From NCBI GenBank assembly GCA_965214915.1, contig CBDCCP010000002.1, positions 480,844 to 544,843 on the forward strand: a stretch of 64,000 nucleotides of DNA, written 5' to 3'. This document shows, piece by piece, positions 12,409-62,323 of this stretch (within the stretch, counting starts at the first letter, position 1; the number at the start of each line of letters is the position of its first letter). The position numbers were made by a program, and so were the translations under genes. Source of the stretch: Bryobacterales bacterium (GTDB lineage Bacteria > Acidobacteriota > Terriglobia > Bryobacterales > UBA6623). Below the pieces are notes generated by a model. That model was not told where the DNA came from and did no database searches. It saw only the letters and a list, made by a program, of their open reading frames with translations.

Positions 12409-12453
12409 GGCGCGGGAGCAGCTTTGCCCTATACTGGATAGAGGAAGCCCGCT

Positions 12454-12692
12454 GTGAGCCTTCTCGTTGTCGAAGTTTACGAAGCCTTGATCGCCGCCGG
12501 CGCGCCGGAAGAGAAGGCCAGAGCCGGCGGCCGCGGCGATTCCCGCCGGCGGGAACTTGGCCACCAAGGATGACATCGCCGAGGTCAAGGTTGAGATGGC
12601 GAACGAGGTTCAAGGCGCTTTACCGCAATCTCTGGATGATGGCCGTCGGCATCGTCTCGCTTACCGTCGCCTTGGTCAAGCTCATCCTCTGA
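12454..12692 (+). pseudogene. DUF1640-like small membrane-anchored coiled-coil protein, reading frame broken twice
   Basis: Three consecutive frames read MSLLVVEVYEALIAAGAPEEKARA, then AAAAIPAGGNLATKDDIAEVKVEMANE, then FKALYRNLWMMAVGIVSLTVALVKLIL-stop. Removing one G near 12521-12530 and one near 12606-12608 gives a clean 78-codon ORF. GAGGAAG RBS upstream of GTG 12454. Confidence 0.5.
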
Positions 12693-13333
12693 CGCCGCGG
12701 GCCGTTACGCCGTCGGCCGGCGCGACAGGTCCAACGGCGCCGCATCACGCGCGCGGGCAAGCTCGGGGCCCCGGCCTGGACGGCTCCAGAAACGTGACCG
12801 ACCGGTAAAAATCGTCCAGCGCGACGGAAGAAGCCGTTTTCTTGCGCCCAGCGGCGCATCCGCTGATTGCAGGAATGCTCCCAAGACAGGATCTCCACGC
12901 GCCAGCCCCGTTTTTGCATGAGTTCCAAAGCGGTGTGAAAACCCGCGCCTTCGAGATAGCCCGCGCCGTCGCCGGTCAGCAAGACGACAATGCCCGGGTC
13001 GCCGTTGAAAATCAAGGCGTCCTTCAGCATTTCCAGTTGGAGCGCCCGATCGGGCATGTCCTGTTCGCCGCGTCCGGAACTGCCGCGGTCGAACAGATTC
13101 ACCTCCACGCCCATGTTTTCCATGCGGTTCCATAGCTGCCTCATCTCCGGCGGCACGGAACCGGCGGCAAGAGCCTTTTTTACATTACGGCCGGCCTGCG
13201 CCAAGCGCATCATGTTCTCGAAATCGATGCGCACGCGGTAACGGGCGTCGGGGCTTCTTTCCCGTTCTTCGGCCAAGCGCTGCGCCTCGTGGAAAACGTC
13301 GGAGTTGTCCCAATAAAGGAAAACGCTGTCCAT
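12620..13333 (-). CDS. NYN (LabA-like) domain protein; C-terminus probably frameshifted near 12821-12832
   Basis: MDSVFLYWDNSDVFHEAQRL...VVLLTGDGAGYLEGAGFHTALELMQKRGWRVEILSWEHSCNQRMRRWAQENGFF. The in-frame tail is Arg/Pro-rich junk that overlaps the opposite-strand gene. The +1 frame reads VALDDFYRSVTFLEPSRPG and stops at 12745. Confidence 0.65.
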   Translation of the reverse strand: MDSVFLYWDNSDVFHEAQRLAEERERSPDARYRVRIDFENMMRLAQAGRNVKKALAAGSVPPEMRQLWNRMENMGVEVNLFDRGSSGRGEQDMPDRALQLEMLKDALIFNGDPGIVVLLTGDGAGYLEGAGFHTALELMQKRGWRVEILSWEHSCNQRMRRWAQENGFFRRAGRFLPVGHVSGAVQAGAPSLPARVMRRRWTCRAGRRRNGPRRQRMSLTKATVSETMPTAIIQRLR

Positions 13334-46408: not shown

Positions 46409-49400
46409 GTTTTGCCCCGTCTCCCCTCGCCGAAGCAAAGGGAGGTGGCGGCGCTGACGCCTGACGTGCTCAGCTTTTGATCGGTTTCAATCCGCTCCCC
46501 TTGCCGAAGCAAGGGGAGATGGTGGCGTTTTGGCTGTGGTGGATTGGGGAGCGCAAGTTTCAATCCGCTCCCCTTGCCGAAGCAAGGGGAGATGACGCGC
46601 ATGTGGCCTCGCCGACGCCGGGGCACGTGTTTCAATCCGCTCCCCTTGCCGAAGCAAGGGGAGATCCGAGCGCGAGGCCATCGAGTACGTGATGGGTCTC
46701 GTTTCAATCCGCTCCCCTTGCCGAAGCAAGGGGAGATGGAGAACACGTCTCCAATGTCCTCGTTACTGATCCAGTTTCAATCCGCTCCCCTTGCCGAAGC
46801 AAGGGGAGATCGCCAAGGATTTTCGATACGGCCGCGCCGAGATCAGTTTCAATCCGCTCCCCTTGCCGAAGCAAGGGGAGATGCCTCCCGTCCGCGGGTA
46901 GCTCCCGCGCTGATGAGTTTCAATCCGCTCCCCCCGCCGAAGCGGGGGGAGATCACGACGAATCCGAATAGCCCGCAGCAATTTGTACTCGTTTCAATCC
47001 GCTCCCCCCGCCGAAGCGGGGGGAGATGCCGGCGAACGAATCGACCGATACGGCTCCGTCGCGTTTCAATCCGCTCCCCCCGCCGAAGCGGGGGGAGATG
47101 CGAGCACGGATGCGCGGTTCTCGTTCCTGCAATGTTTCAATCCGCTCCCCCCGCCGAAGCGGGCGGAGATCCAGGCGCTGCTCGGCCGCGGCGGCCTCTT
47201 TGACGTTTCAATCCGCTCCCCCCGCCGAAGCGGGGGGAGATATCGCCGGCCAGGGCGGCATCCATAATCTCGCTGGTTTCAATCCGCTCCCCCCGCCGAA
47301 GCGGGGGGAGATGATACCTACGTGGGCCGCAAGTACTCACTCCCTATCGTTTCAATCCGCTCCCCCCGCCGAAGCGGGGGGAGATTCCGGGCAGCGCGCG
47401 GGTGACCAGATATCCCCGATGGTTTCAATCCGCTCCCCCCGCCGAAGCGGGGGGAGATCAAGGTCGGGCGAAAAACGGTGAGCAATCGCGGCACGTTTCA
47501 ATCCGCTCCCCCCGCCGAAGCGGGGGGAGATTCGGGAATACCGCGTCTTCCGTAAGGCGCGCGCGGCGTTTCAATCCGCTCCCCCCGCCGAAGCGGGGGG
47601 AGATGATGCCCACGCCGATCGCGCCCCAGATATTATTGAGTTTCAATCCGCTCCCCCCGCCGAAGCGGGGGGAGATGAGCTTACGGTCGTCGAATGCGAG
47701 GATGCGGTCGCGGAGTTTCAATCCGCTCCCCCCGCCGAAGCGGGGGGAGATGCGCACCTCCTAGCGCACCGCCGACCAAAGGATCACAGTTTCAATCCGC
47801 TCCCCCCGCCGAAGCGGGGGGAGATCAACCCGGCCGGGTTGTCCACGCGGTGGCTTTTGCGTTTCAATCCGCTCCCCCCGCCGAAGCGGGGGGAGATTCG
47901 TTGACTGTCTCAAGTGCGCCGGCGCGCCTGAGTTTCAATCCGCTCCCCCCGCCGAAGCGGGGGGAGATACGAGAGTTCAGGCGCGCCGTTCTTGAGGAAC
48001 AGGGTTTCAATCCGCTCCCCCCGCCGAAGCGGGGGGAGATGTCGATATGCCGCGTCGCTCCGATCGCGGCGATATCCGTTTCAATCCGCTCCCCCCGCCG
48101 AAGCGGGGGGAGATGCGCAAGCGCTTCCTCGCGGCCGGCGCGGAGGAAGAGTTTCAATCCGCTCCCCCCGCCGAAGCGGGGGGAGATGCGCAAGCGCTTC
48201 CTCGCGGCCGGCGCGGAGGAAGAGTTTCAATCCGCTCCCCCCGCCGAAGCGGGGGGAGATCCTGAGACGATCGTCTGGATCCGCGGCCGCCAGTCGTTTC
48301 AATCCGCTCCCCCCGCCGAAGCGGGGGGAGATGATCGATCAGGGGGTGGGCGCGATCACGCTCGACGTTTCAATCCGCTCCCCCCGCCGAAGCGGGGGGA
48401 GATGCGTACGACCGCAGCGGTCGGGTGCCGGCCGCCGCAGTTTCAATCCGCTCCCCCCGCCGAAGCGGGGGGAGATCATGGTCGCCCTTTGGCGGCGCTG
48501 ATACTCTTACGTTTCAATCCGCTCCCCCCGCCGAAGCGGGGGGAGATCGGGCGGGAAGAGAAATCAGCGCCACGGGCGCCATGGTTTCAATCCGCTCCCC
48601 CCGCCGAAGCGGGGGGAGATATGAGTACCACCTCTTATCTCTCCCGACTCACCTCTGTTTCAATCCGCTCCCCCCGCCGAAGCGGGGGGAGATCCGGGAG
48701 CTGCAACGCGAATGCACCGATACAGAGGGTTTCAATCCGCTCCCCCCGCCGAAGCGGGGGGAGATCCCGCATGAGCGACCTCGAAGAGACAGATGCCGAC
48801 GTTTCAATCCGCTCCCCCCGCCGAAGCGGGGGGAGATCACGCCGAACGGCGATGCCTCGACCGGCGTATTCTGTTTCAATCCGCTCCCCCCGCCGAAGCG
48901 GGGGGAGATCGGGCGACCTCGACGAATGGCGCGCGCCAATCAGCGTTTCAATCCGCTCCCCCCGCCGAAGCGGGGGGAGATTGCGCAGGGACAGCCCGGC
49001 CGCAGCGTCCATGTGGTGTTTCAATCCGCTCCCCCCGCCGAAGCGGGGGGAGATGAGATGGCGCACAAAATCGACGACCGTGCGATCGTCGTTTCAATCC
49101 GCTCCCCCCGCCGAAGCGGGGGGAGATCGCCGGCTCGGCGATGGGTAATACCATATATAGGGAGTTTCAATCCGCTCCCCCCGCCGAAGCGGGGGGAGAT
49201 GCTGCGACTTCGCAGATGTAATTGGGTTGATCGGCTGTTTCAATCCGCTCCCCCCGCCGAAGCGGGGGGAGATCTCCGCTCATTATCCCAGTCAATAGCA
49301 CGCTCATGCGTTTCAATCCGCTCCCCCCGCCGAAGCGGGGGGAGATACCACGACCACCTACGCGCAGGTAATCCATCTCTGCGTTTCAATCCGCTCCCCC

Positions 49401-49855
49401 CGCCGAAGCGGGGGGAGATTCGATCGCGTCGAGGCGGCCGGCGTGGGCGGCCGAGTTTCAATCCGCTCCCCCCGCCGAAGCGGGGGGAGATGGCGTGCCG
49501 GTGGCGGTCTACGCCCAGCCGGATCCGTTTCAATCCGCTCCCCCCGCCGAAGCGGGGGGAGATCCCCGGAAAATCTTATGTGACCGGCCTCGAGAAAACG
49601 TTTCAATCCGCTCCCCCCGCCGAAGCGGGGGGAGATGTCGGGCGCCGTCCAGCCGCCCGACAAAATCGGCGATCGTTTCAATCCGCTCCCCCCGCCGAAG
49701 CGGGGGGAGATCAGATGCCGACGACGACGAGATTGCCGACTTCATCGTTTCAATCCGCTCCCCCCGCCGAAGCGGGGGGAGATCGGCGCACCTCCTGGAG
49801 GCGCCGCGCCGCCTCGTCGTTTCAATCCGCTCCCCCCGCCGAAGCGGGGGGAGAT
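46409..49855 (-). CRISPR. CRISPR array: 47 canonical 37-bp repeats (46484-49855) plus one degenerate terminal repeat (46409-46446); 47 spacers of 34-38 bp; transcribed on the minus strand
   Basis: Every repeat and spacer was indexed by hand, and the summed lengths reconcile exactly (47x37 + 1633). The minus-strand repeat ATCTCCCCCCGCTTCGGCGGGGGGAGCGGATTGAAAC ends in the I-C hallmark ATTGAAAC. The degenerate repeat is distal to the cas genes. Confidence 0.97.
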
Positions 49856-50035
49856 GCCGATGGCTGTAACCGGAGGCATACAAAAGGGTTATGCAGGCGG
49901 ATGCGCGATTCGGCCAACCGATTGTCCTGAATTTTCGATTCAACTGTCAAGAAACGCGATAACCCGTTACTATGCAGTCGCTTGCGGACTGCGCGAATAC
50001 ACGGCAAAAACTTCGTTGCTTGGGTTTCGCGCATG
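49856..50035 (-). promoter_or_regulatory. CRISPR leader (180 bp, AT-richer) with a candidate promoter: -35 TTGACA (complement 49945-49950) and -10 GACAAT (complement 49921-49926)
   Basis: Located between the cas2 stop and the first perfect repeat. 18-nt spacer between the hexamers. The promoter call is motif-based only. Confidence 0.45.
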
Positions 50036-50326
50036 TTACAAGATCAACGGCGCATCGAAGTCCACGGGTTCTTTGATTCCGTGATGCTCCGTCTCCTTTC
50101 GGGCGTTTTCCTCCATGCGGTAAAACCTGAGAGAATCCTGCTTCAAATCGATTTCCTTCAGCAGACGGTTCCTGAGCGCTGCCCATTCGCCTTTCCCTAC
50201 CCGGCATTCGAAAAGCGACTTCTGAACCCGGACGCCGTAATCCTCACAAGCTCGCGCCACCCGGCGAAGTCGTTTTTGTCCGGGTTTATCTACAGTCGAA
50301 ACGTCGTATGCGATCAGGATAAACAT
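50036..50326 (-). CDS. cas2: CRISPR-associated endoribonuclease Cas2
   Basis: 96 aa. MFILIAYDVSTVDKPGQKRLRRVARACEDYGVRVQKSLFEC. The start overlaps the cas1 stop. Confidence 0.95.
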   Translation of the reverse strand: MFILIAYDVSTVDKPGQKRLRRVARACEDYGVRVQKSLFECRVGKGEWAALRNRLLKEIDLKQDSLRFYRMEENARKETEHHGIKEPVDFDAPLIL

Positions 50327-51387
50327 TATTTTGGAATAAAGGGGATGTAGTCGGGGATATCGCCGCGGAGTGTTCGCGCCAATAACCGGGCTTGAATACT
50401 GAAGACTTGCCCTAAGCGGATTTTTTGTTGGAACAGAGCATGTTTGATTTCCGTTTGTTTGCGCTGTTGCCAAACCCGGATGACTTCCTTCCTGCCCCGG
50501 TCGGTGAATTCGACGGCGCCGCCTTCTCGTTCGCGAAAATGCCCGGATTCGATCCGGCGGCGATTGATCAGGGTCAATGCCAGTCTCTCCGCCAAACAAG
50601 GCCGGAATTCTTCCATCAGGTCCAAGGCGCAAGCCGGTCTCCCCGCGCGCGTCGCATGGAGCCAACCGACATAGGGGTCCAGCCCCGCTGTCGTCAACGC
50701 AGCCAGGCAATCATGGCGGACCAGGGCGTAGATGAAGGAAAGCAGGCAGTTTATCCGGTCCCCGGGCGGACGCCGCCTGCGGGTTACGAATCTGAAATCC
50801 TCTCGTTGTTGCTTGAGCATGTGTTGGAATACCGAGAAATATACCTTGGCGCCCAAGCCTTCCAGTCCTCTGACCGGGTCGAGCGCTTCCCGGAGCCCGC
50901 AATCTCCGGCAACGGCCGGGGCATCGCCGAGCCGGCGGATCAGCCGGGCCAGCTCGGCCGCTGCGCCGGCCAACTCCCGGCGGTCGGCGTCGCCGGCGGC
51001 TTCCCGTCCGGAGCGCAAGAGGTTGGAGCGCGCGTTTTGCAGCTTTCCGGCGACGAACCGCCGCGCAAAGCGCGCTGCGTCCTGCGGGTTGTCCGCCGCG
51101 GCATACTGCGCCCGGCGCAGCAGATAGCGGGTGTCGCCGCTCCCCAGGACTTGCGCCAGCAGGTAGCCGTTTTCGGTGTGATAATGCACGGCTACCTGAT
51201 GTTCCCAGCACAAGGCCATCGCCGAAGGCGTAACCGTGACTTGCCCGAACGCGCAGATGCTTTCCAGGTGGTGAATCGGAACGGCCAAGCGGGTTTGCTT
51301 TTCGATCTTGACTCGGAGCGTCAGATGGTCCTTGAGCACCACGGTTTTCGGAGTCGTCAGGTAAAGAGTGTTCTGGATGACGGCCAT
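50326..51387 (-). CDS. cas1: CRISPR-associated endonuclease Cas1 (type I-C)
   Basis: 353 aa. MAVIQNTLYLTTPKTVVLKDHLTLRV...LDPYVGWLHATRAGRPACALDLMEEFRP. Confidence 0.95.
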   Translation of the reverse strand: MAVIQNTLYLTTPKTVVLKDHLTLRVKIEKQTRLAVPIHHLESICAFGQVTVTPSAMALCWEHQVAVHYHTENGYLLAQVLGSGDTRYLLRRAQYAAADNPQDAARFARRFVAGKLQNARSNLLRSGREAAGDADRRELAGAAAELARLIRRLGDAPAVAGDCGLREALDPVRGLEGLGAKVYFSVFQHMLKQQREDFRFVTRRRRPPGDRINCLLSFIYALVRHDCLAALTTAGLDPYVGWLHATRAGRPACALDLMEEFRPCLAERLALTLINRRRIESGHFREREGGAVEFTDRGRKEVIRVWQQRKQTEIKHALFQQKIRLGQVFSIQARLLARTLRGDIPDYIPFIPK

Positions 51388-51431
51388 GATGCATCGTTGC
51401 GCCCTGCGCGGCGCACGGAGTCGGGCAACCT

Positions 51432-52073
51432 CTAATCGGCGGTGTCGAACACTTCCCGTCCGGCCCGCGCCAGCGTGGACGAATCTCCGACAATCTCAGG
51501 GAGGCAATAGTCGAAAAGCGAACATTGCGAACATTGGGGTTTATGGATTGCGTTCGGAACCCTTTCGTCTTCGATGAGCCGATGCACGGCTGCGGCGGCT
51601 TGTTCGGTGAGGCGGCGCAAGTCCTCTGTAAACGTCACCTCTCGGCGGCGCTGGCTGGATGCATGAAAAATGAATCCTCGGGGGATGTCCCGCCCGAACA
51701 TTTCTTCCAGGCAGAGGGCTTGCGCGCAAAGCTGAGCGTCATCGTTGTCGAACCTGCGCCGTCTGCCCTTTTTGTACTCGACCGGCGTCAGCGAACCATC
51801 GGGTCTGCGCTCGACGATGTCGCACTTGCCGCTGAGCCGGAGCCGGTCCGACCAGACGGGCAGCGCGCGCAGCAGGGTCGCGCCTCCGACCGTTTCATAG
51901 CCAGGAATATCGGCTTGCTCGTGCAGTTGACTCCCGATCACGGTGTGCTCGTTGGTCCCGCGCCAACCCTCAACCGCCTTCAGCGCCGCCCGGCGTTGAC
52001 AAAAAAGGTAGTCGTTGAGCAGCGAGAGAGGGATGGGATCGGGCGATAAGGGGAATAGTGCTCCAGTGGTCAC
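51432..52073 (-). CDS. cas4: CRISPR-associated exonuclease Cas4
   Basis: GTG start. LLNDYLFCQRRAAL...GKCDIVE...PVEYKKGR...CSQCSLFDYC (RecB-like nuclease with a 4-Cys cluster). Confidence 0.9.
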   Translation of the reverse strand: MTTGALFPLSPDPIPLSLLNDYLFCQRRAALKAVEGWRGTNEHTVIGSQLHEQADIPGYETVGGATLLRALPVWSDRLRLSGKCDIVERRPDGSLTPVEYKKGRRRRFDNDDAQLCAQALCLEEMFGRDIPRGFIFHASSQRRREVTFTEDLRRLTEQAAAAVHRLIEDERVPNAIHKPQCSQCSLFDYCLPEIVGDSSTLARAGREVFDTAD

Positions 52074-52936
52074 AGTTTCTCGATCAATTCCACAGTTTTG
52101 GGAAGGTTGTTTCGGTTGATGGAAACCTCATAATCGAAGAATTGGCGGGCAGCTTGGACGGATTCCTTACGAGTAACCGTTATACGTTCAAACAACTTGT
52201 GTGCCGGCGCATTGCCGAGGGCGGATTGGTGTTTGAATACGATGAGCTTTTGCGGGGCCATAGTGCCGCGCGAGGCGGAGCGGTCGAGGTCAAACATATT
52301 CTGTAATGCCTGCCAAAGAAGGTTGAGGTCGTCGCCGCCGAATCCAGTGTCGCGTGCGAGGTTGGCGGAAATGAAACCGTGGCAACGGTACAAGCCATAT
52401 GGAATGAGGTTCTTACGGCCCATCGTCTGGTTCGGAGCGTTAAGTTCCTTAGCCTCGGTAACGGCCATGCGGGTAATGGAGATGTCCATTGGCAGGATGG
52501 GATCAAGGCTGCGGCTGAAGCTCAGTTGCACGGGGCCGCGCACTTGTCCGGCGTTGGCTCCAGTGGACATTACCGCTCCGAACGTCCTCACATCGTAGTA
52601 GCGACGGCACATTTTGGCACGGGCGCTTTTCACTTGGTCGCGGGTGGCTTTCTTGGACTTGCCGTCCACTTCGTGGCCGAGGTCTTTGTGGGCTTGGGCG
52701 ATGGAGTCGTTCAGGACCGCGCCCTGGCGAACGAAGATGTCGAACGGTTCTGCACCGCCGTTAGCTTCCAGCACATAGTTGCGGATTTTGCGCTTCAGGC
52801 ACACATCGGAGACAAGACCGTGCATGTCCTGCGGGTCCATACGCGGAGCGTTGGCGGCATCGGGATCGCCGTTGGGATTGCCGTCCTTGCAGTCGAAGAG
52901 ATAGACGAAGTCGTATCGGTTTCGGATGGGATTCAT
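52070..52936 (-). CDS. cas7: Type I-C Cas7 (Csd2)
   Basis: 288 aa. MNPIRNRYDFVYLFDCKDGNPNGDPDAANAPRMDPQDMHGLVSDVCLKRKIRNYV. Confidence 0.95.
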   Translation of the reverse strand: MNPIRNRYDFVYLFDCKDGNPNGDPDAANAPRMDPQDMHGLVSDVCLKRKIRNYVLEANGGAEPFDIFVRQGAVLNDSIAQAHKDLGHEVDGKSKKATRDQVKSARAKMCRRYYDVRTFGAVMSTGANAGQVRGPVQLSFSRSLDPILPMDISITRMAVTEAKELNAPNQTMGRKNLIPYGLYRCHGFISANLARDTGFGGDDLNLLWQALQNMFDLDRSASRGTMAPQKLIVFKHQSALGNAPAHKLFERITVTRKESVQAARQFFDYEVSINRNNLPKTVELIEKL

Positions 52937-52979
52937 ATTGTCCTCACTTTCGTTTCGATATTTAAGACTGAGTTAGCGG

Positions 52980-53381
52980 TTATTGCGTAGTGGGTTCAGC
53001 GTTGGCGGTTTGTTCTTTGCGCTCGATGGAGCGGCGTCGGTACTCGGCGTTTTGATGGTAGTAGCCCAGCGCGAAACGGCCTTGACCTTCGAGATCGAGG
53101 CTGGGTGGGAAATGGTCACCTAGCTCGGTAGTGATGGACTCGAAGTCCTTACGCACGTTTTCCGCTGCGCCACCGCCGGCTTTTGCCAAGTGAAATTGCG
53201 CGTTGCGAAAGAGTCGGCCCATCACCATGGCGGGCGTGGTGCTGGCTCCGGAATAGAAACGCTCGACAACGCCGGCATTGACATTGCCGAGAGCGAGATA
53301 TTGGAGACGGTCAAAGACTGAGAAAAGTCGTCCGCAGAGATAGGCTGGATCTGTGGATTCGGTGTTCAATTTTGGGGTCAT
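52980..53381 (-). CDS. Possible internally translated small subunit Cas11c (C-terminal 133 aa of cas8c)
   Basis: In-frame ATG (complement 53379-53381) preceded by AAGGAAAGGAACAAC. The product would start MTPKLNTESTDPAYLCGRLFSVFDRLQ... Confidence 0.4.
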   Translation of the reverse strand: MTPKLNTESTDPAYLCGRLFSVFDRLQYLALGNVNAGVVERFYSGASTTPAMVMGRLFRNAQFHLAKAGGGAAENVRKDFESITTELGDHFPPSLDLEGQGRFALGYYHQNAEYRRRSIERKEQTANAEPTTQ

Positions 53382-54722
53382 GTTGTTCCTTTCCTTGGGC
53401 TTCTTGAAACGGTCTTGACGAGCGAGGCAAGCCTTGATGAGAGCCAGGCGCGCCGGGTTGGTTTTATTGTCGGTTTCGATTTGCTGCCGCCGCAGCGCCG
53501 CGGCCAAGGCAGGCAAAGGCAAGGGCGCGTTGCGTAGCGCGGCATACAAAAGTTGCGTGGGGATCTGCGGGGGCAATTCGTCAAGCTTGGCGCGGACGAG
53601 ACCGTACAGGAGATAGCCGAGCTTGAAATCGGAACGAACGGAATCGCCTTCCGGACGAACGATGGCGAGGTCTTCAAACCATTGCCGCACATTTCGTTCG
53701 ACTTCGGGAACGGTGGATTCCAGCCAGTCGCGGACAATAATGCGGCCACCGTTGCCCGAGAGACTCATGGCGTAGTACTTGTGGTCGTCGAGAATGTGTT
53801 GCTGCTGCCCGGTGTGGGGCGCCTCAAGCAGATTGCGAATATCCTGTTCGTCTGCAGTTTCAAGCAGGTCAAACGGATCGTGAGAATCCTTCTCACGTGT
53901 CCAGTGAAGATGAACGATTCCGTTCTGCGGAAGGCCACGTTGGATGAGGTCGTTTAAAGCGCTGCGAATTTTCAACTCTGCTGTAGCAGAAATGGAGGCA
54001 TTTTCACCTTGCTTCAACCCAAAAGAAGTGAACGAAGCCTTGTCAAAAGAAGTCAGATTGGTCCCCACGGCAAGACCGCCGGGCACGCCTTTGATTTTCT
54101 CCGTGGTGGAGATTGGCTCCGTCAACTCACCGGTCGCTATGCACAGGCGTTTCCTGCCCACGGCGTGCGGCCGCTGCTCTGCGCGGTGCCTGCGCCAGAA
54201 TTCCTTGAGTTCCTCCAATTGCAATAGCAATCGGCCCGAGACTCGAAAAGTGATATTCTCGTTCGGCTTCGCCTTTTGTTCCACCAGTGAAGTGTGAAGC
54301 TTTTCGATCTCGTTCGGTCGGCTCAGGAAGTTCAGAGTTGTCTGAGCCACTGCGCCTTCATTGGGGCATTCGCCAGCGGCTGCTTCCAGAAGTTGCTTGA
54401 AGTAGGCGTGTGAACCCTTGCGACGTTCGGCTCGCTCAGGCTTCTTCGGATCGGGGAAATTGACCGCGCGCTCCAGCGTGTCGCAAAGAAAAAAGGCACG
54501 CGGTCGCGAGGCAACGGTAAGTTCTTTTTGCTCGATGAACGGACGGATAAGCGTTTTCGGTTTGGGCTTTTTCGCATTCGGATTGTCCAGCAGTTCGATG
54601 GGGCCTCCGGTGAGGTTCCCGGCGGCGTCCAGGGGGACGAGCCAGCGGACAGGCGCCTCGTGAAAATCGGCATCGCCGAGACCTTCCCGTTCAGCGTATT
54701 CGATGAGGGCTTGCAGCATCAC
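52980..54722 (-). CDS. cas8c: Type I-C large subunit Cas8c (Csd1)
   Basis: 580 aa. (M)MLQALIEYAEREGL... Positioned between cas5 and cas7. The first codon is GTG at 54722 and an ATG follows at 54719. Confidence 0.9.
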   Translation of the reverse strand: MMLQALIEYAEREGLGDADFHEAPVRWLVPLDAAGNLTGGPIELLDNPNAKKPKPKTLIRPFIEQKELTVASRPRAFFLCDTLERAVNFPDPKKPERAERRKGSHAYFKQLLEAAAGECPNEGAVAQTTLNFLSRPNEIEKLHTSLVEQKAKPNENITFRVSGRLLLQLEELKEFWRRHRAEQRPHAVGRKRLCIATGELTEPISTTEKIKGVPGGLAVGTNLTSFDKASFTSFGLKQGENASISATAELKIRSALNDLIQRGLPQNGIVHLHWTREKDSHDPFDLLETADEQDIRNLLEAPHTGQQQHILDDHKYYAMSLSGNGGRIIVRDWLESTVPEVERNVRQWFEDLAIVRPEGDSVRSDFKLGYLLYGLVRAKLDELPPQIPTQLLYAALRNAPLPLPALAAALRRQQIETDNKTNPARLALIKACLARQDRFKKPKERNNMTPKLNTESTDPAYLCGRLFSVFDRLQYLALGNVNAGVVERFYSGASTTPAMVMGRLFRNAQFHLAKAGGGAAENVRKDFESITTELGDHFPPSLDLEGQGRFALGYYHQNAEYRRRSIERKEQTANAEPTTQ

Positions 54723-54740
54723 GGTTTCTTTCGGGTTGGT

Positions 54741-55463
54741 TCAGACTTCAAGGCCCGCTTTGACGTCGCGCCAGTCGGGCACGTGGACGATACCGTTTTC
54801 GAGGCGGGCATGGAAAAAGGCGCCAAGAGGTTTCGGCTTTTCGATCTTGCCGGGTTTCCAGTTTGTGGGGATGTCGAGATCGAACACGTCGTAGAGGATA
54901 TATCCCAAATCCGTGTCCGCATTGGCGTCTGGCGGCGCCGCCATGTCGCTCGGTTGACCCGGCTCGAAGTTGGCGGGGAATTCGCGGCAACCAAAGCAGG
55001 GCTGGGTGAAGCATTGGCCCTTCTCGGTGCGGCGGCGAAACATGCCGTAATACTTGCCCAGATTGTCGTCGCCTGGGAGTTCGTTGGGATCGAGAGGCTT
55101 TTTATGGGGCCGATTGGCCAAGCGGTTGAGCCCCAGGCTGGCTTCGATGACATAATCTACGTCACGGAGGGCAAGCGTGTTGCGTTGCGTGCGGTCGTCC
55201 TCGGCCAGGATGGGCTCGGGCTTGCGGGAGTTGGCGACGGATTTTACTTCGTTGCGGCGGAAGCTGAGAAATTTGATGGGACGGCGAACGGCGATACGAT
55301 GGACGCGCCAGCGGAATTGCGGCTTGTACAGAATCGCTTCGAGAATGCCTCGGGCAGCCGAGGGCGTGGGCACGGGGTAGCTCACGCGCTCGACTTTCAT
55401 TTCCGGGCGCGTGAAACAGGCCAGATCGCCCCAGACACGGAGATGGACGTGTTCAGTGTTCAT
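54741..55463 (-). CDS. cas5: Type I-C Cas5 (Cas5d, pre-crRNA endoribonuclease)
   Basis: MNTEHVHLRVWGDLACFTRPEMKVERVSYPVPTPSAARGILEAILYKPQFRW... The TTG-extended track ORF (to 55484) would run into the IS inverted repeat, so it was rejected. Confidence 0.93.
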   Translation of the reverse strand: MNTEHVHLRVWGDLACFTRPEMKVERVSYPVPTPSAARGILEAILYKPQFRWRVHRIAVRRPIKFLSFRRNEVKSVANSRKPEPILAEDDRTQRNTLALRDVDYVIEASLGLNRLANRPHKKPLDPNELPGDDNLGKYYGMFRRRTEKGQCFTQPCFGCREFPANFEPGQPSDMAAPPDANADTDLGYILYDVFDLDIPTNWKPGKIEKPKPLGAFFHARLENGIVHVPDWRDVKAGLEV

Positions 55464-55468
55464 AGTTA

Positions 55469-56698
55469 GGGAAGGTCTGAACAATAGGCAATTTTAGGGT
55501 ATGGGAGCGATCAAGGCGTAGGTAGCGGGGCAAGCAATAGGCGGGGGTGGGCGATACTGGGGCCGAAACCAGCTATGGGCAGCTATTTTTCAGGCTGCAG
55601 TAGGGTTTTGAGGGCGCTTTTTGCCTATTGGACACACTACGCCCTGCAGATTACGCCGCAGCAAGCGGCAAGCAGTGCTGCCTGGCCAGGAACAGATTGA
55701 CCAAAGCACAATTGACGTACACCCGCTGAGTGTTCTTCTCCAGCCCGCGGTAGCGCACCTTGCTGAAACCGAAAATCCGTTTCAGCACCTGAAAGGGATG
55801 CTCGACCTTCGCGCGCACCTTCGATTTGGCCCGGTTGCGCTCCTTTTGCGCGGCGCTCAACGGCCTTTGGCGGGTTCCTTTCCGGTGCGTGCAGTCCTGC
55901 GCCTGCGGAGCCTGCTGCCGAATCGCCTGCCCCTGCCCCTGATAGGCCGCATCTCCCCACACTCGCTCTTCGTTGCCGTGCAGCAACTTGCCGATCACCT
56001 GCGAGTCATGTACGTTCGCCGCCGTCGTCGCCACGGAATGGATCAGCTTCGTCTCGGCGTCCACTCCGATGTGCGCCTTCATCCCGAAGTACCACTGATT
56101 CCCCTTCTTCGTCTGACGCATCTCCGGGTCCCGCTTCTTCTCCTTGTTCTTCGTCGAACTCGGCGCGTCGATGATCGTCGCATCCACAATCGTCCCGCCG
56201 CTAACCTTCAGCCCTTGCTCTTGCAAGTGTGCGTTCACCGCCCCGAAAAGCGCCGCCCCCAGTTTGTGCTTCTCCAGCAGCCGGCGAAACTTGCAGACCG
56301 TCGTCTCGTCCGGCGCCGGCTCCCGGCACAAGTCGATGCCCGCAAAACGCCGCATCGCGTTGGAGTCGTACAGCGCTTCCTCCACTCCCGGATCCGACAA
56401 ATTGAACCACTGCTGGAGAAAGTGGATGCGCAGCATCCGCTCCACGCCCACCGGCGGACGCCCTGCCCCTTGACGCTGCGGGTAGACCGGCTTGACCAGC
56501 GCGCAGAGCTTCTCCCACGGCACTACCCTGTCCATCTGTTCCAAAAATCGCTCCCGCTTGGTCACCTTGCCATAGCGCTCGAATCCTGCTTCCGCCAATG
56601 TCCTTTGTCTGTTCAGCGCTCCCTGCATCCTCTCCTACCCCCTCATTCCTGCTATTATTCTATCCGTCTACCCAACGGTCAATTAATCAGACTTTCCC
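55469..56698 (-). mobile_element. IS5-family insertion sequence, 1230 bp
   Basis: Terminal inverted repeats GGGAAGGTCTGAACAATAGGC (55469-) and GGGAAAGTCTGATTAATTGAC (complement, ending 56698), resembling the E. coli IS5 IR GGAAGGTGCGAA. Flanks TTAG and CTAG (YTAR-like). Single DDE transposase ORF. Confidence 0.85.
55651..56628 (-). CDS. IS5-family DDE transposase
   Basis: 325 aa. ...RMLRIHFLQQWFNLSDPGVEEALYDS...GTIVDATIIDAPSSTKNKEKKRDPEMRQTKKGNQWYFGMKAHIGVD...RAKVEHPFQVLKRIFGFSKVRYRGL. Collinear with the E. coli IS5 transposase as I recall it. Confidence 0.92.
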   Translation of the reverse strand: MQGALNRQRTLAEAGFERYGKVTKRERFLEQMDRVVPWEKLCALVKPVYPQRQGAGRPPVGVERMLRIHFLQQWFNLSDPGVEEALYDSNAMRRFAGIDLCREPAPDETTVCKFRRLLEKHKLGAALFGAVNAHLQEQGLKVSGGTIVDATIIDAPSSTKNKEKKRDPEMRQTKKGNQWYFGMKAHIGVDAETKLIHSVATTAANVHDSQVIGKLLHGNEERVWGDAAYQGQGQAIRQQAPQAQDCTHRKGTRQRPLSAAQKERNRAKSKVRAKVEHPFQVLKRIFGFSKVRYRGLEKNTQRVYVNCALVNLFLARQHCLPLAAA

Positions 56699-56727
56699 TA
56701 GATACCGAAGGGAGGCCGCTTGCAACG

Positions 56728-59454
56728 ATGAAACGGTTTTTATTGGCGGTTTCGGCGCTGCTCATTGCTTCGAGTCTTGGCGTTCCGGCGGGCGCCGCCG
56801 ATCTCGAACCCGATCAACTGGACTTTTTCGAGAAAAAAATCCGTCCGGTCCTGGCCAAAAACTGTTACATGTGCCACTCCGCCGAGGCCAAGACGCGCAT
56901 GGGCGGCCTCTCGCTGGATACGAAGCAAGGCATACGCAACGGCGGGCAGCGAGGCCACGCCGTAGTTCCGGGCGACGTCGAGGCCGGCGTGCTGCTGGGA
57001 GCGCTGCGCCACGAGGGCAAGCTGAAAATGCCGCCGATGGGCAAGCTTCCCGACGAGGTAATCGAGGATTTTGCGTCATGGATCAGGATGGGCGCTCCGG
57101 ATCCGCGCGAAGCGAAGATCGCCCGGACGCAATCGACAATCGATGTCGAGAAGGGCAGGGAATACTGGGCGTTTCGGGCGCCGGAGAAGGCCGCTCTTCC
57201 GCCTGTCCGCGACATTGCCTGGCCGCGGGGCGCGGTCGACCAGTTCATTCTGGCGAAGATCGAAGAGAAAGGGCTGCGGCCGGTGAGCGACTCCTCCCGC
57301 GAGGCGTTGCTTCGCCGCGTCTCCTACGACCTCACCGGCCTGCCGCCGGCGCCGGCGGAAATCGCCGCGTTCGTTGCCGACGACGAGCACGCCTTCCGCA
57401 AGGTGGTTGACCGGCTGCTCGCCTCGGAGCATTTCGGCGAACGCTGGGGCCGCCATTGGCTCGACGTCGCACGCTACGCGGAAACCATCGGGCGGACGCG
57501 CAATCTTCCTTTCCCGGTCGCCTGGAAGTACCGCGACTATGTGATCGATGCGTTCAACGCGGACAAACCCTACGACGAGTTCATCCGCGAGCAGATCGCA
57601 GGCGACCTGCTGCCTTACCGCGATCGAGGCGAGCGCAACGCGCAGCAGATTGCCACGGGGTTCCTCGCGCTGGGGGCGCACGATCTCAACGAGATCGACC
57701 GCAAGCTCTTCCCCATGGATGTCGCCGATGAGATGATCAACGTGACGACGCGCTCGATGCTGGCTTTGAGCGTCGGCTGCGCGCGCTGCCACGATCACAA
57801 GTTCGATCCGATTCCGACCAAGGACTATTACTCCATGGCCGGCATTTTCCGCAGCTCCGAGTTGCGCGACGGCCTCCGTCTGCGGCCTCGTTTCAATTCG
57901 GGCTATTTCCGCATTCAAAAAATGGTGATGCTGGACGGAGTTCCCGATTATTCGGGCGGGAACGCTGCCGAGCTGCGCGCCAAACGCGAGCGGCTGTGGA
58001 ACGAATTGCTGGCCGCCGAAGAAAAACGCGACCGCGCGGAAACGCGCAAGCTGGCCCGCGAGCTCGGCGACATGCCCGTGCCCGAGAACTTGGCGATGGG
58101 CGTAGTGGAAGCCGAGCAGGCCGTCGACTGCCAAGTCAACATCGGCGGCGACCCGCACACTCTCGGCGACGAGACGCAGCGCGGCTTCGTACAGGTCTTG
58201 TTCCCCAAAGACCGCGCTCTGCCGCAAATCGGCAAGGACGAAAGCGGCCGCCTGCAACTCGCCGCCTGGCTGACCGACCGCGACAACCCCATGACCGCCC
58301 GCGTGATGGTCAACCGCGTCTGGCACCACCTGTTCGGCCGCGGCATCGTCAAGACCGTCGACAATTTCGGCAAGATGGGCTCCGCTCCGACGCATCCGCA
58401 ACTGCTCGACTACCTTGCGGTGCGGTTCATGGAGCAGGGTTGGTCCGTCAAGAGCCTCATCCGCGAGATCGTGCTCAGCCGGACGTACCGCCTCTCCACC
58501 GACTTCGACGAAAGGAATTTCGAGATCGAGCCCGACAACACGCTGCTGTGGCGCGCCAACCGCCGCCGGCTCGAAGTCGAAGCGCTGCGCGATTCCGTCT
58601 TGCTGATCAGCGGAGAGATGAGCGCCGAACGCCCGGAGGCTTCTCCGGTGCATGCCTTTTCTCGCAATCAGTTGATCAACGCAGGAAACAGGCAAATCAA
58701 GCCTTGGGAAATCGAAGAAACCTACCGCAGCGTTTATGTCCCGGTAATTCGCAATCAGGCGAACCGGTTCTTCGAGACGTTCGACTTCCCCGAGCCGAGC
58801 GAGACTCACGGCGCGCGCGACGTGACCACCGTTGCGACGCAGGCGCTGTTCCTGATGAACAGCGATTTTGTGCAAGCGCATGCGCAAACCGCCGCGGAAA
58901 GGCTCGTCGCCCGGGAAAAATCGGACGCCGAGCGGGTCCGGCGCGCTTTCCGCCAAGTGCTTTCCCGCGAGCCGACCGAGGCCGAGGTGGAAAGGTCGCT
59001 GGCCTTTATCGCCTCCACCGTCGAGGCGTTGCGCTCGGAAGAACAGCCCCGGTGGCGGCACAGCCGCGTCAATGCCGAGGACGACGTCGAGGACTGGCTT
59101 TTTGCCGCCGTGACCGAATTGCTGCGGCGTCAGCCGACGGCTTCCGAGATGGCGGACGCCATAGACTACGTGAGCGAAGAGCAGCCGAGCGCCGAGAAAA
59201 ACATCCAGGCCGTCAAGCGCTTCTTCGTGAATAACGAGGGCAACCTGCGCCGCCGGCAAATCGGCAAGCTCGTGGAGTTGCTTCGCGGACGCCCGGCGGA
59301 CCCCCGCGATTTCGACGAGATCGCGGCGTTCCTCGAACGCGTCGGACGGCCGGCGCGGGACCGGAGCGTCCCCTCGGTTCGCGGCCCGCAGGAAGCGTGG
59401 GCCCGCTTGTATCACGCGCTGTTCAGCAGCGCCGAGTTCCGCTACCGCGGATAA
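56728..59454 (+). CDS. PSD1-type protein (PSCyt heme-motif domain plus DUF1549 plus DUF1553)
   Basis: ATG 56728 with a GGGAGG RBS. Signal peptide MKRFLLAVSALLIASSLGVPAGA. CYMCHS heme motif. CARCHDHKFDPI. The first 369 codons of track ORF 55621-59454 are antisense to the IS5 transposase. Confidence 0.85.
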   Translation: MKRFLLAVSALLIASSLGVPAGAADLEPDQLDFFEKKIRPVLAKNCYMCHSAEAKTRMGGLSLDTKQGIRNGGQRGHAVVPGDVEAGVLLGALRHEGKLKMPPMGKLPDEVIEDFASWIRMGAPDPREAKIARTQSTIDVEKGREYWAFRAPEKAALPPVRDIAWPRGAVDQFILAKIEEKGLRPVSDSSREALLRRVSYDLTGLPPAPAEIAAFVADDEHAFRKVVDRLLASEHFGERWGRHWLDVARYAETIGRTRNLPFPVAWKYRDYVIDAFNADKPYDEFIREQIAGDLLPYRDRGERNAQQIATGFLALGAHDLNEIDRKLFPMDVADEMINVTTRSMLALSVGCARCHDHKFDPIPTKDYYSMAGIFRSSELRDGLRLRPRFNSGYFRIQKMVMLDGVPDYSGGNAAELRAKRERLWNELLAAEEKRDRAETRKLARELGDMPVPENLAMGVVEAEQAVDCQVNIGGDPHTLGDETQRGFVQVLFPKDRALPQIGKDESGRLQLAAWLTDRDNPMTARVMVNRVWHHLFGRGIVKTVDNFGKMGSAPTHPQLLDYLAVRFMEQGWSVKSLIREIVLSRTYRLSTDFDERNFEIEPDNTLLWRANRRRLEVEALRDSVLLISGEMSAERPEASPVHAFSRNQLINAGNRQIKPWEIEETYRSVYVPVIRNQANRFFETFDFPEPSETHGARDVTTVATQALFLMNSDFVQAHAQTAAERLVAREKSDAERVRRAFRQVLSREPTEAEVERSLAFIASTVEALRSEEQPRWRHSRVNAEDDVEDWLFAAVTELLRRQPTASEMADAIDYVSEEQPSAEKNIQAVKRFFVNNEGNLRRRQIGKLVELLRGRPADPRDFDEIAAFLERVGRPARDRSVPSVRGPQEAWARLYHALFSSAEFRYRG

Positions 59455-60866: not shown

Positions 60867-61141
60867 GCGTCGAGCGCCGCCGCGTCAGGGTTTGCGAAAG
60901 ATTGCGGAACATTGCGCCGCGGGGCCGCAGTTCGTCCCGAACTGCGCCGTCCGCAGCGTCAACCGCCTTCCGCAAACGTGAGCGTCCAATGCGGCGCAAG
61001 AGCGTACATTTGTCCGTTCCGAGACGGATTGCAGGCCGTTGCCGATAGGTTTGCCGGCGGTTTCGTGATAGCCTACAAGCGCCTCTCCGGGTGCTGCGTG
61101 CGACACGGGCGCCCGGTTCCGTCTGCGAATGGAGAAGAAAA

Positions 61142-61561
61142 ATGGACAAGAAGAATCTTATTGTCTCCGGTTTGGCGGTCTACGTTGTCTTCCAACTCCT
61201 GGACTTTCTCGTGCATTCGGTTCTGCTGAGCGGAGCCTACGAGGCCACCGTCGACGTCTGGCGGCCCGAGGACGAAATGATGTCGATGTCATGGATCATG
61301 TTTCTCGCCAACCTTTTGTGGGCGTTTATCTTCGTTCACCTTTTTGCCCGGATGCGACAAGGGCAGGGAATCATGGAGGGACTGCGCTACGGTTTTTGCA
61401 TCGGCCTCTTCGTGACTGTGCCCATGGCTTACGGCTTTTACGTGGTGTTGCCCGTCCCGCACTCGTTGGCCCTCGCCTGGCTCGTATACGGGATGATCCA
61501 GATCATGCTCTGCGGAGCGGTTCTGGCTCTCGTGCATCGGCCCCGGCAATCGACCCGATAG
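61142..61561 (+). CDS. Small 4-TM membrane protein of unknown function, paralog 1
   Basis: 139 aa. MDKKNLIVSGLAVYVVFQLLDFLVHSVLLSGAYEATVDVWRPEDEMMSMSW... GGAGAAG RBS. The upstream ATG at 61129 is out of frame. Confidence 0.75.
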   Translation: MDKKNLIVSGLAVYVVFQLLDFLVHSVLLSGAYEATVDVWRPEDEMMSMSWIMFLANLLWAFIFVHLFARMRQGQGIMEGLRYGFCIGLFVTVPMAYGFYVVLPVPHSLALAWLVYGMIQIMLCGAVLALVHRPRQSTR

Positions 61562-61741
61562 AGGCGGCGGTCGCTGGACTCGGAGTCTCCCGGGCGCCCG
61601 CCGCTAACGCCGGAATACTTGTCGGAGAAAAAACCACGTTCCCGAATTTACGTCTGTTAAGTTGGCCAATCGTTTCGTGGTAGCCTACAGGCGCTTCGCC
61701 GGGCGCCGCGCGCCCGGTTCTGCCTGTGTATGGAGGAGAAA

Positions 61742-62161
61742 ATGGACAAAAGAAACCTCATAGTTTCCGGTTTGGCGGTTTATGTCGTCCACCGGGTACT
61801 CGACTTTCTCGTGCATGCGGTTCTGCTGGAAGGAGCTTACGAGGCCACCATCGACGTCTGGCGGCCCGAGGACGAGATGATGTCGATGTCGTGGATCATG
61901 TTCCTCACCAGTCTTTTGTGGTCGTTCATCTTCGTCCACATTTTCGGCCGGGTCCGGCAAGGGGAGGGAGTCATGGAGGGGCTGCGCTACGGCTTTTGCA
62001 TCGGCCTCTTCGTGACCGTTCCCATGGCTTACAATTCGTACGTCGTGATGCCCGTTCCGCACTCGCTGGCTCTCTTGTGGTTCGTGTACGGGATGCTCCA
62101 GATCATGATCTGCGGAGCGGTTCTGGCTCTCGTGTACCGGCCCCAACAGTCGTCCGCATAA
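61742..62161 (+). CDS. Small 4-TM membrane protein of unknown function, paralog 2
   Basis: 139 aa with about 26 differences from paralog 1 (about 81% identity by hand). GGAGGAG RBS. Confidence 0.75.
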   Translation: MDKRNLIVSGLAVYVVHRVLDFLVHAVLLEGAYEATIDVWRPEDEMMSMSWIMFLTSLLWSFIFVHIFGRVRQGEGVMEGLRYGFCIGLFVTVPMAYNSYVVMPVPHSLALLWFVYGMLQIMICGAVLALVYRPQQSSA

Positions 62162-62246
62162 GCGCGGCGGCCTCTTGACGCGAAGTTTTCCGGGGCGCCC
62201 GCCGCTAACGACGGGACGCGCAAACCGAAGCTGTAGACGAAGGGGG

Positions 62247-62323
<77 letters not shown>

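Follow-up and report, generated by a model that had tools for sequence, protein, structure and literature searches.

Analysis of a 64,000-nucleotide (nt) stretch of the genome of a Bryobacterales bacterium (assembly GCA_965214915.1, contig CBDCCP010000002.1, positions 480,844 to 544,843), referred to here as the window, revealed a type I-C clustered regularly interspaced short palindromic repeat (CRISPR)-Cas locus that lacks cas3 and carries an insertion sequence (IS) of the IS5 group next to cas5. The window probably holds the cas5-to-array part of a type I-C locus that was split from cas3 by this IS, and cas3 was probably not deleted but is now encoded in trans. Read in this way, the IS-driven rearrangement is an ordinary one, and the immune system is not disarmed.

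The CRISPR-Cas module lies on the minus strand at positions 46484 to 55463 in the order cas5-cas8c-cas7-cas4-cas1-cas2-leader-array and is complete save for cas3 (Table 1). The identities of the cas genes were assigned with NCBIfam models, and every score exceeded the curated cut-off. Together with the Pfam assignments, they confirm the gene order, with the IS in the place of cas3, that had been proposed from the nucleotide sequence and its open reading frames (ORFs) alone (here called the sequence-only reading). All six Cas proteins are full length in comparison with their homologues. The closest Cas5 homologues likewise have 240 amino acids (aa) and are 83 to 87% identical across 100% of the length, and the Cas5 start ATGAACACTGAACAC is common to the window and to the related locus L028. 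The effector proteins of type I-C (Cas5c, Cas8c/Csd1, and Cas7/Csd2) are all encoded, as is the adaptation module, with cas4-cas1-cas2 beside the CRISPR array. As expected for type I-C, cas6 is absent, cas5 to cas2 being contiguous with no extra ORF, and processing of the precursor CRISPR RNA by Cas5c is predicted. The cas3 gene that a type I-C locus carries upstream of cas5 is missing, and the IS and a PSCyt1-PSCyt2-PSD1 gene (PSD1) occupy that place. A tblastn search with the Cas3 proteins of the related loci L001 and L003 found no Cas3-like sequence in the window (best E = 1.4), in agreement with the earlier statement that cas3 is lacking within these 64 kb.

Comparison with related loci revealed cas3 directly upstream of cas5 in all 15 loci holding both genes, as the sequence-only reading had taken to be normal. 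The Cas3 proteins of the relatives have about 750 to 760 aa (two calls have 813 aa), and the cas3-cas5 spacer measures 190 to 200 nt in the closest relatives. The nearest genomes, OY729422.1 (4.33 Mb) and OZ243965.1 (5.32 Mb), are labelled Bryobacterales metagenome-assembled genomes and are long-read assemblies. On the array side, synteny with the window is kept (genes for an RluB-like pseudouridine synthase, ScpB, ScpA, and a response regulator). The genes on the cas3 side of the relatives, encoding a 93-aa protein, methylmalonyl-CoA mutase, a PQQ-repeat protein, a sulfatase, and SdhBA, gave no match in the window; the orthologue of the 484-aa sulfatase is absent there, and only paralogues of 24 to 27% identity were found. 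Position 10001 of L001 (OY729422.1) aligns to window position 55463, and the homology to the relatives ends at the edge of the IS.

The element at this edge is an intact IS5-group IS. Its transposase matches NF033581 (IS5 family) over profile positions 1 to 285 of 285 with 373.9 bits (cut-off, 140) and contains the Pfam domains DUF772 and DDE_Tnp_1. The element shows the features of the group, namely one DDE transposase of ~320 to 340 aa, a length of ~1.2 kb, and inverted repeats beginning GGAAGG, which match each other at 14 of 17 positions. The ends were set by the convention of five 78%-related copies (GGAACC...TTTCC with a 4-bp flank), and the homology of L028 up to 55469 agrees with them. 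The element described by the sequence-only reading is thus upheld, with its extent corrected from 1230 bp at 55469 to 56698 to 1228 bp at 55470 to 56697. The gap between IS and cas5 ATG, AGTTA (55464 to 55468) by the earlier ends, becomes 6 nt by the revised ones. On the other side, the PSD1 gene starts at 56728, 29 nt past the IS as had been noted, and is followed by a DUF1501 gene; PSD1 is unrelated to CRISPR. A search with a 24-nt IS-end pattern gave zero matches in the genome and metagenome contig collections searched.

An identical 4-bp target duplication of the form YTAR, the reported IS5 target motif (PMC10359306), is not present around the element. The flanks are TTAG and CTAG, each of which is individually a YTAR sequence. 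Three of the five copies of the 78%-related IS in the 5.32-Mb relative have perfect 4-bp duplications (CTAA, CTAG, and TTAG). Because three of the related copies obey the 4-bp duplication rule, the unequal flanks in the window indicate a recombinant copy that joins the halves of two insertion sites. A model in which the IS ends are bounded by a 2-bp TA duplication was rejected, since the outer flank bases co-vary on both sides in three related copies (CTAA/CTAA, CTAG/CTAG, and TTAG/TTAG). In the related copies L029 and L030, the left flank is TTAA and the right flank CTAG, which is not the reciprocal pattern of one inversion; further IS-linked rearrangements therefore seem to have occurred in the 5.32-Mb relative.

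Both flanks were traced to native sequences. The closest relative, L028, is a 1.8-kb contig with 96.9% nucleotide identity over cas5 and homology starting at window position 55469. It reads ...CACAGAG-CTAA-TT-ATG, L024 likewise reads ...GAG-CTAA-TT-ATG, and the window reads IS-CTAA-CT-ATG. The CTAA of L028 at the insertion point indicates that the IS used a native target located 2 nt before the cas5 start codon and that the cas5-side flank is native. On the opposite side, the PSD1 locus of the 5.32-Mb relative (L035) is 89.8% identical to the window from 56705 onward and has its own CTAG at the matching spot (CTAG-GTGCCG, versus CTAG-ATACCG in the window), which indicates that the CTAG flank is native PSD1 upstream sequence. 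The suggestion of the sequence-only reading that unequal 4-nt flanks do not fit a simple insertion has thus gained support, each flank being native to a different locus (L028 and L035). The PSD1 gene is now separated from its own upstream region.

The distance between the two loci differs in the relatives. In the 4.33-Mb genome, one strand carries both cas5 and PSD1, which are separated by about 0.69 Mb that includes cas3; in the 5.32-Mb genome, the two genes are divergently oriented at a distance of 264 kb. The PSD1 orthologue is preceded by a gene for HflX in L035 (5874 to 7244) and by one for peptide chain release factor 1 in L036 (5939 to 7244). The differing neighbour, distance, and orientation in L035 and L036 mark the PSD1 upstream region as a recurrent rearrangement boundary. 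In L035, a 352-aa ORF (12215 to 13273), located ~0.8 kb downstream of the DUF1501 gene, has 73% nucleotide similarity to the window transposase gene (window positions 55936 to 56437), which indicates that IS5-type elements visit the PSD1 neighbourhood in relatives too.

A candidate for the separated cas3 was found in a protein collection that records, for each exact sequence, which size of contig carried it; the hit tables give this for cluster representatives. The Cas5, Cas7, PSD1, DUF1501, and MBL-fold proteins of the window are each recorded on one contig of 1,698,002 bp. The window transposase is identical in sequence to P0121, which is recorded on two contigs, the longer of 2,555,597 bp. 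A 761-aa type I-C Cas3, P0260, is recorded on one contig of 2,555,597 bp. P0260 was the second-best match in the search with the L001 Cas3 (99% coverage) and is 82 to 84% identical to the Cas3 of L001, 76% to that of L003, and 90% to the L028 fragment. Its pattern of identity to L001 and L003 tracks that of the window Cas4, Cas1, and Cas2. It passes the models for the Cas3 HD domain (79.3 bits; cut-off, 43.45) and the Cas3 core helicase (117.8 bits; cut-off, 102.45), as does the Cas3 of a relative, and judged by its sequence it looks functional.

The neighbours of cas3 were placed by means of 90%-identity clusters. The 2,555,597-bp contig carries the orthologues of the mutase (P0403), the 93-aa protein (P0413), and the PQQ protein (P0451), and the 1,698,002-bp contig carries those of the sulfatase (P0391) and of a 267-aa protein (P0466); none of the clusters of neighbour genes spans the two contigs. 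Among the cluster members listed, the 2,555,597-bp contig contributed no Cas5 or Cas7 with 90% or more identity to that of the window, and no Cas5 representative on that contig was among the best 120 matches. The two contigs sum to 4.25 Mb, near the lower limit of the 4.30 to 5.32 Mb measured for chromosome-sized contigs (>4 Mb) with the same orthologues. The recorded contig sizes and the complementary gene content, rather than an accession, suggest that both contigs stem from one genome and complement each other. The second IS copy would be expected to adjoin cas3.

Analysis of the P0260 C terminus revealed that the protein is native up to ...YDDHLG and continues with the tail PATMKRNILFSDPSKQRRQTT before its stop codon, where the relatives end in (A/T)C..E.E.LVL. 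The tail corresponds to the native cas3 terminus plus the beginning of the spacer, both read in the +1 frame; in that frame, L028 reads PATMKRNILFCDPSKQRRQTT and L001 reads ...NILFSDPSQRRQTI, each up to a stop. A single-base deletion 11 codons before the stop, near codon 741 (GGC-ACC to GGC-CC), thus alters the last 11 conserved residues of P0260. The frameshift may be a real mutation, as in decay, or a long-read error. Since the tail continues in the frame of the native spacer, at least 35 nt of the cas3-cas5 spacer are still attached downstream of cas3, as expected for a break at the distal, IS-bearing end of the spacer. The idea that the P0260 C terminus is a fusion to foreign DNA was rejected, because the whole tail is accounted for by the +1 frame of native cas3 and spacer in L001 and L028. 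The pentapeptide ATMKR occurs both in the translated PSD1 start region (LATMKRF, window positions 56719 to 56733) and in P0260 residues 743 to 747 (PATMKRN). This is considered a coincidence, as the tail is explained by native cas3 and ~0.7 such five-residue matches are expected by chance (an estimate for the six-frame translation of 64 kb).

The simplest route to the present arrangement would be homologous recombination between two copies of the IS. One copy would have inserted at CTAA, 2 nt upstream of the cas5 start codon, and a second copy at CTAG upstream of PSD1, a gene located 0.26 to 0.69 Mb away in the relatives. Recombination between them would produce the hybrid now seen, with a cas5-side flank at one end and a PSD1-side flank at the other. 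Starting from an order like that of the 4.33-Mb relative, an inversion would give the divergent cas5-IS-PSD1 junction and, at its other end, would place cas3, spacer, and IS beside the old upstream neighbour of PSD1. The cas3 gene would stay with the genes for the PQQ protein, methylmalonyl-CoA mutase, and the 93-aa protein as a separate transcription unit and would provide Cas3 in trans. The event appears to have been an inversion, and the split system may still interfere. Cas3 is a diffusible protein that is recruited to Cascade R-loops. As cas3 also forms a separate operon in the type I-E system of Escherichia coli, unlinking alone should not abolish interference. The intact cas genes, the conserved repeats, and the identical transposases of the two IS copies speak for a recent event or for a system that has kept its usefulness.

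Several observations weigh against a split with cas3 retained in trans. The place and orientation of PSD1 differ between the two relatives; an inversion explains the junction only from the order of L001, and from that of the 5.32-Mb relative only an excision would yield it. The 2,555,597-bp contig is known through protein records, so that the adjacency of IS and cas3 and the reciprocal junction are predictions, and the assignment of both contigs to one assembly comes from their recorded sizes and gene content. The sulfatase and PQQ genes, neighbours in the relatives, are on different contigs here, which no single event explains. Roughly 6 kb from cas3, either the contig must be broken or a second rearrangement breakpoint must lie, and this makes an assembly problem at the IS copies more plausible. 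Finally, the frameshift in cas3 replaces the last 11 conserved residues of its product.

Such an assembly problem would lead to an unlikely alternative. The IS would be a simple insertion between the native spacer and cas5, with cas3 still adjacent, a second copy would precede PSD1, and the wrong flanks would have been joined across the 1.2-kb repeat. The hybrid TTAG/CTAG flanks are exactly the product of a false join across two true insertions, and the break between the sulfatase and PQQ genes, ~6 kb from cas3 in ancestral coordinates, suggests local assembly trouble. The relatives are themselves long-read metagenome-assembled genomes, and strain mixtures can tangle the assembly graph in long-read metagenome assemblies. 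However, contig sizes of 1.7 and 2.6 Mb point to long-read sequencing, whose reads normally extend across an IS of 1.2 kb, and the window runs for at least 8 kb on each side with conserved synteny. Even if the junction were chimeric, cas3 would be present and the IS would still lie between cas5 and the native promoter; the sole difference would be how far away cas3 is.

The sequence-only reading had preferred an IS-mediated adjacent deletion that removed cas3 from the genome and left a recently disarmed type I-C system able to bind targets and acquire spacers but not to degrade DNA. The window, with neither cas3 nor a cas3 fragment and with unequal IS flanks, is what such a deletion would leave, and from the order of the 5.32-Mb relative (divergent genes 264 kb apart) a deletion would give the observed junction. 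It is nevertheless very improbable. A near-intact type I-C Cas3 that passes the HD and helicase models is recorded, together with the ancestral neighbours of cas3, on the 2,555,597-bp contig, which shares the identical transposase and complements the contig of the window gene for gene. The sulfatase and 267-aa protein genes, which the deletion should have removed, remain on the contig of the window itself. Starting from an L025-like order, a simple 264-kb deletion was rejected for the same kind of reason, since genes from inside that segment survive on both contigs. The sequence-only reading had itself offered cas3 supplied in trans as the other branch and had named a type I-C cas3 elsewhere in the genome as the finding that would speak against its account. 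P0260 comes close to being that finding and favours the in-trans branch: the gene was found and appears to belong to the same genome, with the caveat of its 11 frameshifted last codons. P0260 could instead belong to a second complete type I-C locus, the window locus having truly lost cas3, and this has the slightest probability of the explanations weighed. The hit tables show contig data for cluster representatives only, so a second cas5 may hide inside a cluster, and the inspection covered just the 15 listed members of clusters P0001, P0002, P0003, and P0004. Against this, the contig of P0260 carries the ancestral cas3-side neighbours of this very locus, the divergence pattern of P0260 matches that of the window Cas proteins, and neither the listed cluster members nor the best 120 Cas5 matches place a second cas5 or cas7 there. 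A type I derivative that naturally lacks Cas3 (a CRISPR-associated transposon, a type IV-like system, or a Cascade-only system) was rejected as well: a cognate-looking cas3 is present on the partner contig, and no partner gene such as tnsABC/tniQ (Tn7-like) or dinG adjoins the locus, whose neighbours are the IS5 element, PSD1, DUF1501, and ScpAB genes.

The window cas5 lacks its native upstream region. The relatives' cas3-cas5 spacer contains, in order, a hairpin that directly follows cas3, a short guide together with a degenerate, inverted CRISPR repeat, a promoter (TTGACA/TTTACA-N17-TATAWT), a target of the guide after the -10 box, and Shine-Dalgarno (SD)-like stretches, which are weak (GAGG, AGGA, and AGAG) and lie 8 to 12 nt before the ATG. 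The promoter, the SD-like stretch, and the CreR-like site are all gone upstream of the window cas5, whose ATG is preceded by ...GACCTTCC-CTAACT. The statement that cas5 has lost its native upstream context was therefore correct. The only candidate promoter found to point at cas5 is a sigma-70-like site inside the IS (TTGACC-17-AATAAT, 56682 to 56654), and no terminator-like site was found between it and cas5. Read-through transcription of cas5 to cas2 from this putative transposase promoter, as the sequence-only reading had envisaged from the co-oriented transposase gene, is plausible. Translation initiation of cas5 may be poor, as an SD sequence is lacking.

The guide-bearing element in the relatives looks like a CreR/CreA-type circuit of Cascade autorepression in type I-C. 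Six relatives have a degenerate repeat and a guide partly complementary to the cas promoter region (L028, 1150 to 1346; L001, 9813 to 10000; L027, 7222 to 7417; L003, 9798 to 10000; and the cas3-cas5 spacers of L010 and L011). Antisense to the cas genes, the degenerate repeat ends in ...GGATTGAAAC and is followed by the guide-like stretch. Over its first 15 to 19 nt, the guide matches sense-strand sequence that immediately follows the -10 box of the cas5 promoter and adjoins a conserved TTGCC on its 3' side. Guide and target differ at no positions other than 6, 12, and 18, and the two co-vary from locus to locus in these six relatives. No CreR-like element was found in the window outside the array. 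Elements similar to creA have been found in type I-C too by manual search (bioRxiv 10.1101/2023.03.10.532045). The degenerate repeat and the 15- to 19-nt guide matching a site at the cas5 promoter are shared with CreR/CreA; unlike those systems, the cas5-cas2 genes of the window have neither guide nor target, the element being confined to the relatives. Under a further, more far-reaching reading, the split system would be rewired yet working: the Cascade and adaptation genes would run on the transposase promoter, free of CreR-like autorepression because that loop stayed behind with cas3, and the tail-altered Cas3 would act in trans. This reading is a tentative possibility of rather low probability. 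If it were true, the result would be constitutive interference or a Cascade-only DNA binder, depending on whether the tail-altered Cas3 docks on Cascade.

The window locus was compared with known systems. The canonical type I-C (Dvulg) operon, cas3-cas5c-cas8c-cas7-cas4-cas1-cas2-array, is found in the relatives L001/L007 (OY729422.1), L027, and L028, and the window agrees with it between cas5 and cas2 in which genes are present, in their order, and in the lengths of their products, in the absence of cas6, in a 37-nt repeat ending ATTGAAAC, and in the array-side genes for the RluB-like pseudouridine synthase, ScpB, and ScpA. It differs in lacking cas3 and the 190- to 200-nt spacer with its terminator hairpin, CreR-like guide, and promoter, in place of which it has the IS and an unrelated gene. 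Transposition of IS elements into cas loci with inactivation of CRISPR-Cas has been documented as a natural event (Nat Commun 2023, PMC10359306). Those insertions likewise include an IS5-type element with a YTAR target in a cas operon. Here, in contrast, no cas reading frame is broken, the IS lies 2 nt upstream of cas5 (6 nt with the duplicated target), and the copy is recombinant, so that the effect is operon splitting and promoter loss and not gene disruption. In E. coli type I-E, cas3 and casABCDE12 are separate operons (PMC10359306). There, too, Cas3 is expressed from a transcription unit of its own and is recruited by Cascade as a free protein, linkage not being needed for interference, and the hairpin after cas3 and the separate cas5 promoter of the relatives suggest two units in these type I-C loci as well. 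The two units are adjacent in E. coli, whereas they are on different contigs here.

Table 1. Features of the type I-C locus, the IS5-group element, and its flanks in the window
Feature	Position	Strand	Description
cas5c	54741-55463	-	240 aa, full length, native start codon; TIGR01876, 158.8 bits (cut-off, 85)
cas8c/csd1	52980-54722	-	580 aa; TIGR01863, 327 bits (cut-off, 219)
cas7/csd2	52070-52936	-	288 aa; TIGR02589, 369.6 bits (cut-off, 182)
cas4	51432-52073	-	213 aa; TIGR00372, 115.8 bits (cut-off, 65)
cas1 (type I-C Cas1c)	50326-51387	-	353 aa; TIGR03640, 410.7 bits (cut-off, 385)
cas2	50036-50326 (true start)	-	96 aa; TIGR01573, 58 bits (cut-off, 24.5)
Putative leader, ~180 nt	49856-50035	-	Between cas2 and the first repeat; assigned by position
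CRISPR array	46484-49855	-	47 repeats of 37 nt, 46 spacers; repeat ATCTCCCCCCGCTTCGGCGGGGGGAGCGGATTGAAAC in the cas-sense strand
IS5-group IS	55470-56697	-	Intact, 1228 bp; imperfect terminal inverted repeats GGAAGGTCTGA.../GGAAAGTCTGA...
IS5-family DDE transposase gene	55651-56628	-	325 aa, intact, co-oriented with cas5
Last 6 nt of native cas3-cas5 spacer	55464-55469	-	CTAACT in cas-sense; holds the IS5 target CTAA (TTAG on the plus strand at 55466-55469)
PSD1-side 4-nt flank	56698-56701	+	CTAG; fits the YTAR target, differs from the cas5-side flank TTAG
Native 5' region of PSD1 gene	56702-56727	+	AAGGGAGG, Shine-Dalgarno-like stretch; homology to L035 (89.8% of nt) from 56705
PSCyt1-PSCyt2-PSD1 (DUF1549/DUF1553) gene	56728-59454	+	908 aa; Pfam PF07587, PF07583, PF07635; orthologous loci L035 and L036
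Sigma-70-like site TTGACC-17-AATAAT	56654-56682	-	Inside the IS, upstream of the transposase gene; consensus match only

The array itself is well preserved. The 47 spacers first counted proved to be 46 spacers between 47 repeats. Forty-one of the 47 repeats are identical to the consensus; 40 of them are leader-proximal, so that the perfect conservation claimed for the leader-proximal repeats holds apart from one single-mismatch copy, at about 47135 to 47171, that interrupts them. The six oldest repeats (46484 to 46882) have the stem CCCCTT...AAGGGG and the 41 newer ones (46917 to 49855) the stem CCCCCC...GGGGGG, a double compensatory change that keeps the repeat hairpin. Comparison of the spacers with the window and all fetched loci revealed no self-targeting spacers, and no spacers were shared with relatives among those loci, where only chance matches of 14 to 20 nt occurred.

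In OZ243965.1, the locus L025 (9974 to 21819) occupies the same chromosomal site (sulfatase-PQQ-mutase-93aa-cas3...) and has an identical 37-nt repeat and a Cas1 that is 90% identical to that of the window, whereas its Cas3, Cas5, Cas8c, and Cas7 are only 43, 47, 31, and 42% identical, respectively. This looks like a swap of the effector module with retention of the adaptation module and array type. Elsewhere in the window, a tRNA-Asp gene lies on the minus strand at 62247 to 62323 inside a spurious 250-aa ORF. In L035, a gene region for a 139-aa (DUF1761-like) protein occurs in several copies that are matched by the segment 61060 to 61604 and also by the segment 61604 to 62214, which suggests a local tandem duplication at 61060 to 62214.

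These results indicate that local context alone is not enough to score cas3 as missing, as a locus that is Cas3-less within 64 kb may be one part of a split operon. The window shows how, in nature, an IS5-type element can reshape a defence locus while leaving every gene unbroken. In it, the IS has parted the nuclease gene from those of the surveillance complex, and the Cascade operon has lost its promoter together with a self-regulatory guide/target pair. If the split system is active, type I-C interference would tolerate the full unlinking of cas3 and the loss of autoregulation; otherwise, the arrangement would be a case of ordinary genome plasticity.

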